Shown in pieces: positions 2,325 to 7,226 of a stretch of DNA of 14,449 nt. Position 1 is the first letter of the stretch. The number at the start of each line of letters is the position of its first letter. Position numbers and translations under genes: made by a program. Origin of the DNA: a virus (taxonomy: Duplodnaviria > Heunggongvirae > Uroviricota > Caudoviricetes); the IMG/VR virus record IMGVR_UViG_2875713109_000007; one strand, written 5' to 3'. The notes under the pieces are model-generated. The model had not been told where the DNA came from, did not search any database, and saw only the letters and a list, made by a program, of their open reading frames with translations.

Positions 2325-2643
2325 CAACTATTCAGATACATCACTCCCATCACATTCATTCCTCCGCATCATAGGCATATAGGCTATATCACCTTGATAT
2401 TTTTCTTCTTCAGATAAAAACTGTTATCTATGTATACTTTTAAACCCAATCCGTGTAGAGTCTCTGCATAAGATAGTTTGCAGTTGCCACTTCAGCTTGC
2501 GCCATAAACCGCCTGATTTTTGCTGCCACCTGTTAGCATTCCTGTATACCTGAAACGACAATGTTTATCTACGAACTTTAAGAACCCCCAGGATAAAAAT
2601 TGTCAACTATATCATATATAACACATTACTAATTCGAGGCTAT

Positions 2644-2757
2644 ATGAACAGCATACTGATAATCACTTCGCTCCTTATCATATTCAGCATTTTTAGTCAT
2701 GCGCTAATAAAATTAGGGATTGGCATATCCAATAACCCAGACAAAACCGATGTATAA
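2644..2757 (+). CDS. Hypothetical 37-aa hydrophobic (single-TM-like) small protein
   Basis: ATG at 2644 preceded by GAGG (2636-2639). Translation [37 protein letters not shown] is a hydrophobic stretch of about 23 residues with a polar tail; TAA at 2755-2757. Too short for the ORF track, so no homology support. Confidence 0.35.
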
Positions 2758-2825
2758 GTCAACATATCCTGAATCAGACATACAATATCGCAATGAAAAT
2801 CAATAATATTTTAAGGAATATCTTC

Positions 2826-3059
2826 ATGAAATCAAAAGACACCCTAAAGTGGTTCCCTGCGCAGCTTCCTGAAGTAAGAATTATCCTAGGGGATGCTGTA
2901 GTGGAAGTAGCAAAACAGGGAAGACCTATCAATACCAGAACATTGCTTGATTACATTGAAGGAAACATAAAGAAAAAATCATGGCTGGATAACAAAGAAT
3001 TATTACAAACAGCGATATCAGTTCTTAAAGACAACCAAAATTTAAATGGTAAAATGTAA
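2826..3059 (+). CDS. Small hypothetical protein, 77 aa, possibly YdfK/YnaE-family (tentative)
   Basis: ATG at 2826 with AAGGA SD (2813-2817) at 8-nt spacing; the track's upstream start at 2793 lacks an SD. Lies immediately upstream of the Pin invertase on the same strand, as ydfK does relative to pinQ and ynaE to pinR in my recollection. Family assignment is from context and length, not verified sequence identity. Confidence 0.5.
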   Translation: MKSKDTLKWFPAQLPEVRIILGDAVVEVAKQGRPINTRTLLDYIEGNIKKKSWLDNKELLQTAISVLKDNQNLNGKM

Positions 3060-3375
3060 TATAATAAACTTACTTTTTTATCATTTTTCCACTTTAACAA
3101 CATTTTGCTCCACTTTTCCACGACCAAACAACTTGAAATCTGGTTAAAATAACACGCAACACTATTCTTCTTCCTTGAGTCCGCCCGGAACTCGAAAAAC
3201 AAACCGAGTTAAAGCCATTTTTCACAAAATCGATTTTGGGTCTCACCAAAATTACGGGGTTGCATACGCATTCGTTTATTTTCGAACGTGTACATACAAA
3301 TATGCACAAAAATAATCATAATTATTTTCTGAGATGCATTATGATATGAACACCAATTTCGTATAGAGTCTCACT

Positions 3376-3966
3376 ATGTCTCAAATTTTTGCTTACTGTC
3401 GGATATCAACGCTGGATCAGACCACCGAAAATCAACGCCGGGAAATCGAAAGTGCAGGTTTTAAAATCAAACCTCAGCAAATAATCGAAGAACACATTAG
3501 CGGCTCAGCAGCAACCAGTGAGCGTCCTGGTTTTAACCGGTTGCTTGCTCGCCTGAAATGTGGTGATCAATTGATTGTGACAAAACTGGATCGCCTTGGT
3601 TGTAATGCAATGGATATCAGGAAAACAGTGGAACAACTGACCGAAACAGGTATCAGAGTGCATTGCTTAGCATTGGGGGGCATTGACCTGACCAGTCCAA
3701 CAGGAAAAATGATGATGCAAGTAATTTCAGCAGTCGCTGAATTTGAACGAGACCTTTTACTTGAACGCACTCATTCCGGGATAGTAAGAGCCCGCGGCGC
3801 AGGGAAACGTTTTGGTCGACCACCTGTGTTAAATGAAGAACAGAAACAGGCGGTATTCGAACGAATTAAGTCAGGTGTAAGTATAAGTGCCATTGCCCGG
3901 GAATTCAAAACCTCGCGGCAAACCATTTTAAGAGCCAAAGCAAAACTTCAGACACCTGACATATAA
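3376..3966 (+). CDS. pin: Pin-family serine DNA invertase (PinQ/PinR-like), 196 aa
   Basis: ATG at 3376, TAA at 3964-3966. N-terminal serine-recombinase catalytic domain (YCRISTLDQ with the catalytic Ser; [18 protein letters not shown]) and C-terminal HTH ([20 protein letters not shown]). Convergent with a tfa/tail-fiber remnant, as in Qin/Rac. Confidence 0.85.
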
Positions 3967-4063
3967 AAAATAATCTCGGTGTGAGATGCTTTACGTCTTC
4001 CAAGCCCCCTTCCTTGCCGTAAATGGAAAGATACATCTAATTATAGAATTTATATGTTTTACC

Positions 4064-4639
4064 CTACGGCAGTGCTGGCCATTCAATATCCTGTGCAGTT
4101 GACGTATCAACACGGTTCAGCAATACCCGATACTTTTTCCATGCTTCCAGCAACGAGATTTCTTCCTCCGTTGCAATTTCCAGATCTGCAGCATCCTGAA
4201 GCGGCGCAATATGCTCACTGGCTACCTGCATCAGGTTGTTTTTTGTTTCTTCCGCCTCCCGGATCCGGAACAGTTTTTCTGCTTCCGTATCCTTCACCCA
4301 GGCTGTGCCGTTCCACTTCTGAAACTCCCCTTCCGGCGATAACCAGGTAACATTTTTCGGTAACGGACCGAGTTCAGAAATAAATAACGCGTCGCCGGAA
4401 GCCACGTCATAAACCGTTTTACCCCGATGATCTTCAACGAGATGCCACGATGCCTCATCACTGTTGAAAACAGCCACAAAGCCAGCAGGAATATCTGGTG
4501 GTGCAATATCGGTACTGTTTGCTGGCAGACCTGTATGAGGCGGAATATATGCGTCACCTTCACCAATAAATTCATTAGTTCCGGCCAGCAGATTATAAAT
4601 TTTTATGGTCCGTGGTTGTTCACTCATTCTGAATGCCAT
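4064..4639 (-). CDS. tfa: Tail fiber assembly protein (Tfa), 191 aa
   Basis: ATG at 4639-4637 ([20 protein letters not shown]…), TAG at 4066-4064. Strongly resembles lambda/e14 Tfa as I recall it. Confidence 0.8.
4112..4221. repeat. Direct repeat copy 2 (tfa 3' region), paired with 1341-1450
   Basis: See copy 1. Confidence 0.8.
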
Positions 4640-4897
4640 TATGCAAGCCGCGATGTTTTTGACGGTGTTTTCCGCGTTACCAGCAGCGTTAACGGTGATG
4701 GTGTGTCCATGTGAACCAATCGCAACGGAGTGCGTATGAGCACCAATACCGACAGTATGCGCGTGTGCACCTGCAGATGCTGCTGTGCCGGACAGTGAAT
4801 GGCTATGATTACCATCTGTACTGGTATTCGCTAACCACCCCGTAGACATACCTACTGAGCCTTGTACACCCGTTGTTAACTTATCCATGGATTTCAT
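4640..4897 (-). pseudogene. Side tail fiber C-terminal tip fragment, fused in frame to tfa
   Basis: Encodes …[55 protein letters not shown], a His-box tail-fiber tip like the lambda Stf C-terminus. No stop before the tfa ATG. Possible own start at ATG 4897-4895 with GAGGTG SD. The 5' constant part of the fiber gene is absent; the N-terminal boundary is uncertain, and the track's 4942 start is a TTG. Confidence 0.55.
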
Positions 4898-5032
4898 AAC
4901 CCCACCTCGCAGACAAAGCGGGTGTAAATTGAGGGAATACAACGTATCGCAAAAAAGCAGAAACGTAACAGACTCGGAGTCAGTGAATAACTCAGGTATT
5001 GGGTTATCAGCTAATATCGAGACTCAAAAAAT

Positions 5033-5058
5033 GGAAAAACCCGCTCGACGGCGGGTTT
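5033..5058 (-). terminator. Putative rho-independent terminator, minus-strand orientation
   Basis: GC stem CCCGC (5040-5044) pairs with GCGGG (5051-5055), extended by A-T pairs. On the minus-strand RNA the stem is followed by UUUUUCC; on the plus strand only UUU follows. Confidence 0.45.
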
Positions 5059-5392
5059 AAGCTGTGTGACGAAGTAACCACTCTTAACAGCATAACCAAT
5101 TTTTTACGTACGTAAACCACAAAATGATATTTGCGAGAATGCTACCGAGTATTGAAAACACCACTACAAATACATAAGCAAATCTCAACAAATAACCAAC
5201 AAATAATTTCCAGTGTTATTTTTAGCCGATTTAAATTGAACCTTCAAATTACAGAGCACTTATAAATAACAGCCGTTAATATAAATTGGCTAATAGATTT
5301 ATTTTTATTCAGCCAAGATCCATGAATAGGATTCGATAGAAAAAAGTTCAGATAAAAATAGAGATCTACTTCACAAATCAAACGAGAAACCA

Positions 5393-5412
5393 AAACTTAC
5401 ATCTTGAAATAA
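5393..5412 (+). promoter_or_regulatory. OmpR-box-like motif upstream of the porin gene (tentative)
   Basis: ACTTACATCTTGAAAT resembles the ompC OmpR site TTTACATTTTGAAAC that I recall. It lies about 85 bp upstream of the nmpC ATG in an AT-rich leader. Confidence 0.25.
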
Positions 5413-5486
5413 TCACATTGATTAGATGAATATTTATCGCGCAGTGACATCATTTTTTAATAATAGTTCAAAAAAAAGGGCTCACG

Positions 5487-6569
5487 ATGAAAAAATTAAC
5501 AGTGGCAATTTCTGCTGTAGCTGCATCAGTACTGATGGCGATGTCTGCTCAGGCAGCTGAAATTTATAATAAAGACAGTAACAAGCTGGATCTATATGGG
5601 AAAGTTAATGCCAAGCACTACTTCTCCTCTAATGATGCAGATGATGGTGATACTACTTATGCCCGTCTTGGCTTCAAAGGTGAAACCCAAATCAACGATC
5701 AACTGACTGGTTTCGGTCAGTGGGAATATGAATTCAAAGGCAACCGCGCTGAATCTCAAGGCTCCTCCAAAGACAAAACCCGTCTTGCATTTGCAGGCCT
5801 GAAATTCGGGGACTACGGCTCAATCGATTACGGCCGTAACTACGGTGTAGCATATGACATCGGTGCGTGGACTGACGTTCTGCCAGAATTCGGTGGCGAT
5901 ACCTGGACCCAAACAGATGTGTTCATGACTGGTCGCACCACTGGTGTTGCAACTTATCGTAACAACGACTTCTTTGGTCTGGTTGATGGTCTGAACTTTG
6001 CTGCTCAGTATCAGGGTAAAAATGACCGCACTGACGTAACTGAAGCTAATGGTGATGGTTTCGGTTTCTCCACTACTTATGAGTATGAAGGATTCGGTGT
6101 AGGTGCAACCTATGCTAAATCTGACCGCACTAATAATCAGGTTATCTACGGTAACAACAGCCTGAATGCATCTGGTCAAAATGCTGAAGTATGGGCAGCT
6201 GGTCTGAAATATGATGCGAACAACATCTATCTGGCTACCACCTATTCTGAAACCCAGAACATGACTGTTTTTGGTAATAACCATATTGCCAACAAAGCAC
6301 AAAACTTCGAAGTAGTTGCACAATATCAGTTCGACTTCGGTCTGCGTCCGTCCGTTGCTTACCTGCAATCTAAAGGAAAAGACTTGGGTGCGTGGGGTGA
6401 TCAGGACCTGGTTGAATATATTGATGTAGGTGCAACCTATTACTTCAACAAAAATATGTCCACTTTTGTTGATTACAAAATCAACCTGATTGATAAGAGC
6501 GATTTCACGAAAGCATCTGGCGTTGCTACCGATGATATCGTTGCTGTAGGTATGGTTTACCAGTTCTAA
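5487..6569 (+). CDS. nmpC: Outer membrane general porin (OmpC/OmpF/NmpC family), 360 aa, intact
   Basis: ATG at 5487 with AAGGG SD; signal peptide [29 protein letters not shown]; porin hallmarks and C-terminal …VGMVYQF; TAA at 6567-6569. Uninterrupted, with no IS sequence. Confidence 0.9.
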
Positions 6570-6584
6570 TTTGATTACTAAAAG

Positions 6585-6640
6585 ATATGTTGCGGGAGGC
6601 TTTGCCTCCCCAACATATAAGTGGCTCCCTCAAGCCACTT
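6585..6640. repeat. Two adjacent stem-loops just downstream of the porin gene
   Basis: Hairpin 1: ATATGTTGCGGGAGGC-TTT-GCCTCCCCAACATAT (6585-6618). Hairpin 2: AAGTGGCT-CCCTCA-AGCCACTT (6619-6640). No U-run follows either. Confidence 0.5.
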
Positions 6641-6700
6641 CCTTTAGGAGCACAACCTTGCTTCTAACTATATAAACCTTCTGTTATATATTACCCTTTA

Positions 6701-6730
6701 TTTTTGGGGGCGTTGCAACGCCCCATTTTT
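6701..6730 (+). terminator. Rho-independent terminator for nmpC
   Basis: Perfect palindrome GGGGCGTTG/CAACGCCCC (6706-6724) followed by ATTTTT (6725-6730). On the minus strand the stem is flanked by A-runs, so it is plus-oriented. Confidence 0.65.
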
Positions 6731-6757
6731 AATAATTTTTAGTAAACAATTGGCATA

Positions 6758-7141
6758 TTAATTAGAGTTATTAACAACGATATCCATCTCTAACCGGATA
6801 TCTAATGCCATTAACATCCCTTCAATTATGCCCTCAGCCTTCTGTAACCTTTTCCCGATATAACCATCAGAGCAGCAATGCTTACCTGCCAGTGACATGA
6901 ATGTCATACCGACTACATAATAATCTACTAATAAATCGTGCAAATCGCTGTTGTTCTTTTTCAGACGGGCCATGCACCCGCAAATAATCATCGCGTCATC
7001 GTCACAACATTGCGGGCGAGATTTTACTTTTGAAGTAATTAATCCCTTAAAACCGGCGGCAATGGACGACCAGGTCACATCTTCATGATTATTAGCCGCC
7101 CACGCTCCCCAACGCTCAAGAACCATCTGAATATCACGCAT
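6758..7141 (-). CDS. quuD: Lambdoid late-gene antiterminator Q homolog, 127 aa
   Basis: ATG at 7141-7139 ([18 protein letters not shown]…) with GGAG SD; the track's upstream start at 7156 is a TTG. TAA at 6760-6758. Cys-rich region [16 protein letters not shown]. Matches my recollection of DLP12 QuuD. Confidence 0.8.
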
Positions 7142-7226
7142 CAACTTACTCCACAAAAATCAGACCAGAACGCCAATTACAAGCAAAAATCAACAAAACA
7201 GTATTAGTTGATTGTTATCTCTGACT

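Follow-up and report, generated by a model that had tools for sequence, protein, structure and literature searches.

A PinQ-type recombinase gene in a DLP12-type prophage of Escherichia coli as a probable remnant of a Tn3-family transposon

Since the publication of the E. coli K-12 genome, PinQ and PinR have carried the annotation 'DNA invertases'. The Din invertases include PinE of the prophage e14, Gin of phage Mu, Cin, and Hin. In e14, the gene order is stfP, tfaP, the inverted tfaE and stfE, the site pixR, and then pinE, which reads away from them; pixR ends 52 bp before the start of pinE. Phage Mu has the same layout, with the boundary of the G segment 67 bp before gin. In this study, we analysed the gene pin of the IMG/VR virus record IMGVR_UViG_2875713109_000007, a stretch of 14,449 nucleotides (nt) that is called the window here. 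The protein encoded by pin is 100% identical to PinQ of K-12. An earlier note on this DNA had described pin as an orphan-looking invertase, and considered it either a trans-acting remnant or an enzyme with diverged sites that inverts a neighbouring tail-fibre segment. We believe that pin and its flanks are, with good probability, the res-tnpR-inverted repeat end of an ancient Tn3-family insertion and not an invertase orphaned from an invertible segment, and that recombination in cis most likely does not occur.

Kirigo et al. (NAR 2025, PMC12529663) reported that the overproduction of PinQ raises the inversion of the e14 P segment from about 30% to 88%. The survivors of phage T2 carry the inversion, and the effect requires stfP, stfE, and e14. 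The pinQ deletion mutant had lower survival. A single deletion of pinE locks the P segment despite intact pinQ and pinR, and no inversions were found in Qin or Rac (PMC12529663). The paper makes no mention of Tn3. A full-text literature search, which had subscription journals outside its scope, found no paper linking PinQ or PinR to Tn3-family resolvases and returned annotation co-occurrences only. The gene is known, and its explanation as a transposon relic is ordinary in kind and apparently unremarked before.

Homology of pin and its flanks to a Tn3-family transposon

The pin gene is an intact open reading frame (ORF) at 3376-3966 (+). It encodes a tnpR-type small serine recombinase of 196 amino acids with the Pfam domains Resolvase (E 2.5e-36) and HTH_7 (E 2e-11). 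Pin is 83% identical in amino acids to TnpR of a 3.8-kb Tn3-family transposon. Its closest relatives outside prophages share 77-84% identity with it and are carried on more than 1,800 Enterobacterales plasmids. The identity to PinE was 38% by BLASTP, and the identities to PinE and Gin in the alignment were 39% and 36%; between PinE and Gin themselves, it reaches 79%. Among the solved structures in the PDB, Gin matches Pin best (E 1.6e-29). The recognition helix of Pin (TSRQTILR) is nearly unchanged from that of the transposon TnpR (TTRQTILR) and unlike that of PinE and Gin.

The reference transposon is represented by the copy on pRM10386-2 (NZ_CP028124.1, 43394-47207) and is common on E. coli IncI, IncK, and IncF plasmids. 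In pRM10386-2, the TnpR gene lies 160 bp from a divergent transposase ORF of 914 amino acids, which is frameshifted in this copy. The 914-amino-acid TnpA matches DDE_Tnp_Tn3 and DUF4158 of Pfam and transpos_Tn3 of NCBIfam (1,096 bits). The transposon is bounded by 38-bp inverted repeats (IRs; GGGGTCCGCTTGGAAAACGGAAAATATCCCACGCTAAG) with a 5-bp TTTTA target duplication on both sides, and identical copies of 3,815 bp occur on four replicons of one strain. This element is a live, bona fide Tn3-family transposon. The label given by the Prokaryotic Genome Annotation Pipeline is no more specific than 'Tn3 family transposase' for the relative in L009, and is 'Tn5403 family' for a nearby copy in a Klebsiella plasmid.

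In blastn, positions 3320-4011 of the window aligned with positions 3143-3839 of the transposon at 82.6% identity over 697 nt. The alignment crosses the stop codon of pin, continues into the right terminal repeat (IR-R), and stops at the outer GGGG end of this repeat (4006-4009 of the window). The decayed 38-bp IR-R lies at 3975-4009 (-). It keeps 27 of the 38 positions, including the GGGG end, GCTTGGAA, and an ACGnAAA box; these positions were counted by hand from the blastn alignment, and the limits of the IR were taken from the two inverted repeats of the intact element. Used on its own, the transposon's left IR matched 3962-4005 of the window (E 0.047).

A decayed res site of a Tn3-family element, in three parts, lies upstream of pin at 3263-3365 (+). 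It was identified by alignment with the tnpA-tnpR spacers of seven related elements; the median half-site score in the training set, of working elements, was 14.9 bits. The half-sites follow the consensus TGTACGAAA, in which position 4 is A or C, i.e. TGT(A/C)CGAAA, which we take to resemble the site I half-site of gamma-delta. In the seven relatives, site I is built of 9+8+9 bp and site II of 9+14+9 bp, and a gene-proximal half-site is located at -21. Every half-site has a decayed counterpart in the window at the same spacing: the left and right halves of site I (3263-3271, 0.4 bits; 3280-3288, 7.7 bits), the left and right halves of site II (3303-3311, 6.5 bits; 3326-3334, 2.7 bits), and the gene-proximal half-site (3357-3365, 11.0 bits). 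The alignment shows that these half-sites are homologous, but it is doubtful that they still function. The left half of site I is better kept in phage 2H10, as CATCCGAAT. A -10-like TATGAT is present within the res region at 3340-3345. The half-site position weight matrix (PWM) found no second res-like cluster in the window, and the isolated perfect copies of TGACCGAAA at 3638 and 5711 were taken as chance. The sequence upstream of res (3055-3262) occurs in prophage contexts only.

Related cassettes were also observed in the Erwinia phage LS-2018a (L007, 7826-8606) and in an Arsenophonus plasmid (L016, 3826-4606). Both have well-kept half-sites, TGTACTAAA or TGTACGAAA, at the same spacing. The Pin homologues there adjoin packaging genes and not a transposase; in the Erwinia phage, the neighbour was judged to be a terminase by visual inspection of its translated C-terminal part. 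An invertible segment was looked for beside the homologue of LS-2018a, and none was found. These loci may be stand-alone multimer-resolution cassettes of phage-plasmids.

Catalytic residue, constraint and distribution of pin

The catalytic motif of Pin is disrupted in the alignment, an outcome that the earlier note had named as speaking against its reading. Codon 76 (TGT, 3601-3603, +) encodes Cys at the position of the catalytic Arg in the DRLGR motif, which is R71 in the Tn3 and gamma-delta resolvases. The key residues in Tn3 numbering are Y6, R8, S10, D36, R68, and R71. Pin has Y7, R9, S11, and R73, and a Glu at the D36 position as in the transposon TnpRs; the set is incomplete because its R71 position is Cys76. 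The transposon TnpRs, PinE, and Gin all have Arg there. The change from Arg to Cys is a single CGT-to-TGT transition, and the codon of the transposon is CGT. Cys was found in the window, PinQ, the phages 2H10 and Tritos, the proteins P0001 and P0002, and the diverged P0009/L010 lineage, all of which are of the prophage type. Every transposon-type protein sampled keeps Arg, and every prophage-type Pin examined has Cys. The change is older than the divergence of two prophage lineages, between which the synonymous distance (dS) is 0.21. R71 is among the six residues most critical for catalysis by Tn3 resolvase, and the mutants R71A and R71K gave no recombination and cleaved about 1000-fold more slowly, with site binding retained (PMC2794168). 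Judged by its residues, Pin is unlikely to perform efficient strand exchange.

The transposon-type resolvases that were compared had ratios of nonsynonymous to synonymous substitution rates (dN/dS) of 0.03-0.1. For the window against the transposon, the ratio was 0.15, and the two prophage lineages gave 0.38. The two lineages are separated by 34 nonsynonymous and 25 synonymous changes, which is below neutrality (binomial p 0.0009). We infer, with the least certainty, that the pin ORF is under relaxed but moderate purifying selection.

The proteins P0004-P0008 are chimeric recombinases, in which a transposon-type N-terminal part with Arg is joined to a prophage-type C-terminal part; one of them comes from a complete 5.4-Mb genome. 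Therefore, the live transposon and the prophage relic seem to recombine. Such recombination could restore the catalytic Arg in the prophage copy.

The stf-tfa-pin-ydfK module with a single tail-fibre set is present in the functional phages 2H10 and Kati and in Qin of K-12. Phage Tritos has the same pin-ydfK module beside different tail-fibre genes. The Pin proteins of 2H10, Kati, and Tritos are 99-100% identical to that of the window. Because functional phages and Qin have the same arrangement, the 'orphan' state of pin is not due to decay in the window. The comparison with Qin, which the earlier note had proposed, gave the order ynfT, ydfK, pinQ, tfaQ, and stfQ, i.e. the same neighbours and one tail-fibre set. 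Among 5,426 complete E. coli genomes, the ydfK-pin junction was colinear in 2,754 of the 2,801 that hold it, with up to 3 copies per genome. No alternative ydfK-pin junctions were seen in these 2,801 genomes. The pin-IR-tfa junction was present at a coverage of at least 80% in 2,051 genomes. In spread samples of matching genomes, there were no breakpoints in the pin-tfa spacer, and those found lay within tfa. The tfa breakpoints are best read as a reflection of the mosaic of tfa alleles.

Crossover sites, tail-fibre fusion and prophage context

The earlier note had found no recognisable crossover sites, and our scan bore this out. A PWM was made from the half-sites of gix, pix, and hix; gix and pix were read from Mu and e14, and two hix sequences were taken as known. 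This PWM gives 18-29 bits to real sites; for gix and pix, as read here, the values were 27-29. No site of the gix, pix, or hix type was found in the window, where the best 26-mer reached 8.7 bits; shuffled sequence gave a higher mean best score (11.3). The PWM also found none in the full-length relatives, namely strain S10 and the phages 2H10, Kati, and Tritos. The core AAACCNNGGTTT, with 2 mismatches allowed, gave 5 matches against 8.7 expected, never near pin. The longest inverted repeats in 2400-5600 were 20-34 nt with arms of 70-80% complementarity, unrelated to recombinase sites, and none was sensibly placed. Neither e14 DNA nor a pix site is present in the window.

The convergence of pin on tfa and the tail-fibre tip was seen as described: pin at 3376-3966 (+) faces tfa at 4064-4639 (-), the tail-fibre assembly gene of the lambdoid prophage (Pfam Caudo_TAP, E 1.9e-42; so annotated in relatives). 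The fusion ORF of the tip and tfa is also real, and runs from the ATG at 4897 to 4064. The weak candidate site, TTATCCATGGATTTCATAA at 4881-4899, was rightly placed by the earlier note at the start of this ORF, but as a crossover site it scored at most 2.1 bits. It is the reverse complement of ATG AAA TCC ATG GAT AA, with which the holin gene essD begins (MKSMDK dual start). On the minus strand, 4897-4866 (ATGAAATCCATGGATAAGTTAACAACGGGTGT) is identical to the first 32 nt of essD. A three-way comparison of the window, essD, and stfR placed the first 11 codons of essD at 4866-4897 (-), in frame with the tip of stf, a side tail-fibre gene. This 3' tip comprises the last ~77 codons and lies at 4640-4865 (-), as judged against the full-length stfR of strain S10.

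Downward from 4871, the window is identical to stfR (…GGGGTGTACAAGGCTCAG…). The 6-bp GGGTGT at 4866-4871 is common to essD and stfR at the junction, and the BLAST breakpoints were 4871 and 4866. By these breakpoints, the junction is a microhomology-mediated deletion from the start of essD to the stf tip, which removed the lysis, packaging, head, and tail genes. Only 2 of the 5,426 genomes share the junction toward the porin region. A second deletion of 17 bp (ATTTAACTATATTGTGA in strain S10) near the 3' end of stf, at about 4645, put the tip and tfa in one frame. The fusion ORF is thus to be read as a product of decay by two deletion events.

The ORF map and the comparison with the complete genomes identify the window as a lambdoid prophage of E. 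coli of the DLP12 type with extensive deletions. Its gene order is appY (1-750, -), the tfa fragment tfaX' (about 1293-1460, -), a methyltransferase gene of the ybcY type (S-adenosylmethionine-dependent; 1610-2278, +), ynaM, ydfK (2826-3059, +), pin, tfa, the stf tip joined to the beginning of essD, an nmpC-like porin gene (5487-6569, +; intact, 360 amino acids), and the Q antiterminator gene (6758-7156, -). Strain S10 has the left part as in the window, followed by a full-length stfR of 1,132 amino acids, lom, and J. The porin and Q genes (5487-7156) persist beside the deletion. Therefore, the essD'-stf-tfa fusion occupies the expected starting point of the late operon downstream of Q. At 1307-1460, tfaX' repeats the 3' part of tfa (4077-4231) in direct orientation at 82% identity, and the two copies bracket ybcY-ynaM-ydfK-pin. 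This arrangement suggests that recombination within tfa brought in or rearranged the whole block.

Some smaller features were also recorded. The sole match of the Rfam scan was IS009 (4098-4296, -; 220.9 bits), which lies wholly within the coding sequence of tfa. This match probably reflects how the family was defined in K-12 and not a separate RNA gene. A perfect 14-bp palindrome, CAAAATCGATTTTG, is located at 3225-3238 in the prophage-only part of the ydfK-pin spacer. Its version in phage 2H10, AAAAATCGATTTTT, has a symmetric double change that keeps the dyad. The palindrome was rejected as a Pin site: it has no second copy in the window, and its part of the spacer has no counterpart on true plasmids. 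It could be a binding site of a protein. At 3176-3200, upstream of pin, the conserved TGAGTCCGCCCGGAACTCGAAAAAC resembles an imperfectly paired hairpin, or a fragment like the T-arm of a tRNA; ARAGORN called no tRNA there and found none in the window.

Origin of pin, rival explanations and known systems

We believe that an old Tn3-family transposon would have inserted into the b region of a lambdoid phage. The tnpA half would then have been lost, and the cis sites, res and IR, would have decayed. Because tnpA and the second IR were not found, the element is a relic and not a transposon. From such an origin it would follow that pin never had gix- or pix-type sites and is functionally unconnected with the tail-fibre genes; its convergence with tfa would be an accident of the insertion. 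The absence of recombination in cis is most likely because res site I is degraded and the R71 position is Cys across the prophage lineage. TnpR is known to repress its own expression. The likeliest present activity of Pin may be DNA binding, for example autorepression at a res-derived operator overlapping the promoter, or the binding of related sites elsewhere. This role is favoured because the ORF is constrained and the recognition helix is almost that of the transposon. It is possible, and we offer it tentatively, that the PinQ and PinR types are in general exapted Tn3-family resolvases that lost the catalytic Arg and their own res and were kept as DNA-binding proteins, with the effects on the P segment and T2 exerted through PinE or its sites. 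An alternative to this exaptation, equally new if true, would be an active serine recombinase with Cys instead of an R71-type Arg.

Several points weigh against the transposon origin and the loss of recombination. By tblastn with TnpA (nothing below E 0.5) and blastn, the window holds no transposase remnant and no left IR, the right end being its sole IR-like match. No target duplication survives either, so the insertion is deduced from one end only. A search for an empty insertion site gave none: where pin is absent, the homology of tfa genes breaks off at about 4073-4077 and not at the end of the IR, and in phage Tritos the homology continues to 4175, so that the IR end is not the module boundary there. 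The Erwinia phage and the Arsenophonus plasmid carry stand-alone res/resolvase cassettes without tnpA, and a source other than a transposon is conceivable; these cassettes are only about 60% identical (60-63%) and have no IR. As for activity, we know of no serine recombinase in which Cys has been tested at the R71 position. DNA binding or autorepression by PinQ, which we infer, is the least certain part of the account. The R71 mutants of Tn3 resolvase were described as 'not inert' (PMC2794168). The reported rise from 30% to 88% argues for some recombination-related activity of PinQ (PMC12529663).

Among the other explanations, the inversion in cis suggested by the earlier note, in which pin uses diverged sites to flip the tip-tfa segment at about 3970-5000 and so controls the fusion ORF, is contradicted by our data, and we consider it almost certainly wrong. 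It draws on the position of pin beside tail-fibre genes and on the partial match TTATCCA at 4881. But this match belongs to the essD start, at a deletion junction with microhomology that occurs in two genomes, it has no inverted partner, and the PWM scores are at background. The layout is the opposite of that in real Din systems, and the sampled breakpoints lie in tfa only, with none in the spacer and the ydfK-pin junction colinear in nearly all genomes that hold it. A working resolvase on the upstream res-like region, which resolves dimers of the phage or prophage or recombines the 2-3 copies of pin in a chromosome, seems very improbable to us. The intact ORF with some constraint, the presence of up to three copies per genome, and the homologous cassettes with intact half-sites next to packaging genes in the Erwinia phage and the Arsenophonus plasmid speak for it. 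Against this stand the left half of site I and the right half of site II, at 0.4 and 2.7 bits compared with about 15 in working elements, the replacement of the catalytic Arg by Cys, and the 2,801 genomes, which have no junction variants at the res region.

It has also been proposed that a PinQ-type protein acts in trans and inverts the e14 P segment at the pix sites, so that the chimeric StfE2 blocks the adsorption of T2 (PMC12529663). The window protein is PinQ itself, and the inversion of 88% versus 30%, the T2 resistance dependent on stfP, stfE, and e14, and the survival loss of the pinQ deletion mutant all agree with this proposal. By hand alignment, the left half of pixL, CTCTCGAAAACC, also shares the core CGAAAAC in the same register with the left half of transposon site I, TGACCGAAAACG. 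We nevertheless find direct action in trans doubtful: the catalytic Arg is Cys, R71 mutants of Tn3 resolvase do not recombine (PMC2794168), the recognition helix is of the transposon type, and deletion of pinE alone locks the P segment with pinQ and pinR present. The strain table of PMC12529663 lists no pinE-deleted strain with a pinQ plasmid, and a search of its text gave no catalytic mutant and no assay with purified protein. PinQ could therefore act indirectly, through PinE. As for the trans-acting remnant of the earlier note, the word remnant holds, but for a Tn3-family transposon and not for an invertible tail-fibre system; action in trans, direct or indirect, would match PMC12529663. It is unlikely, in our view, that pin is a functionless relic whose ORF is intact merely through the fast spread of the module with lambdoid phages. 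The constraint is indeed relaxed, with a dN/dS of 0.38 compared with 0.03-0.1 in the transposon copies and of about 0.7 on the L010-type branch (a hand estimate from three pairwise distances), the catalytic residue is lost, and res and the IR are decayed. However, the dN/dS is significantly below 1, full-length ORFs are kept in both lineages over the dS of 0.21, and phenotypes of deletion and overexpression have been published (PMC12529663).

The result bears on more than this locus. About one in two E. coli genomes, as well as functional lambdoid phages, carry proteins of the PinQ/PinR type, and annotation pipelines pass the name 'PinR' on to plasmid resolvases; the present result tells annotators what the gene is. 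The transposon origin would account for a long-standing oddity, namely that the Pins of Rac, Qin, and DLP12-type prophages have no invertible segment. The 2025 paper rests its anti-phage mechanism on PinQ as an active invertase (PMC12529663), and the claim of inversion in trans can now be tested sharply. For the window itself, the outcome is mostly deflationary: no hidden inversion switch acts on the tail-fibre fusion.

The locus can be compared with the known systems as follows. With the Din invertases, pin shares the small serine recombinase fold, a C-terminal helix-turn-helix, 36-39% identity, and a position in a prophage near tail-fibre genes. It differs from them in that gix and pix sites are absent from the window, the recognition helix is different, and the identity is far below the 79% that links PinE and Gin and the roughly 80% usual among Din members. 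The window pin reads toward tfa, whereas a Din invertase reads away from its segment. There is no second tail-fibre cassette in inverted orientation, and S10, 2H10, Kati, and Qin have one stf-tfa set; tfaX' repeats tfa directly and not inverted. The region upstream of the window pin holds res-type remnants and no Din crossover site.

PinQ and PinR of Qin and Rac in K-12 are represented here by a protein 100% identical to PinQ and by neighbours as in Qin. The module of the window differs in that it lies in a DLP12-type prophage beside appY and has lost the DNA between the stf tip and the essD start. The resolvases of Tn3 and gamma-delta are more distant relatives of pin. Compared with the 3.8-kb transposon, the window lacks tnpA and the left IR, its res half-sites are decayed, and Arg is replaced by Cys. 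The transposon end nevertheless shares with the window 83% amino acid and 82.6% nucleotide identity, a nearly identical recognition helix, the spacing of res, and an IR directly after the stop codon of the recombinase gene.

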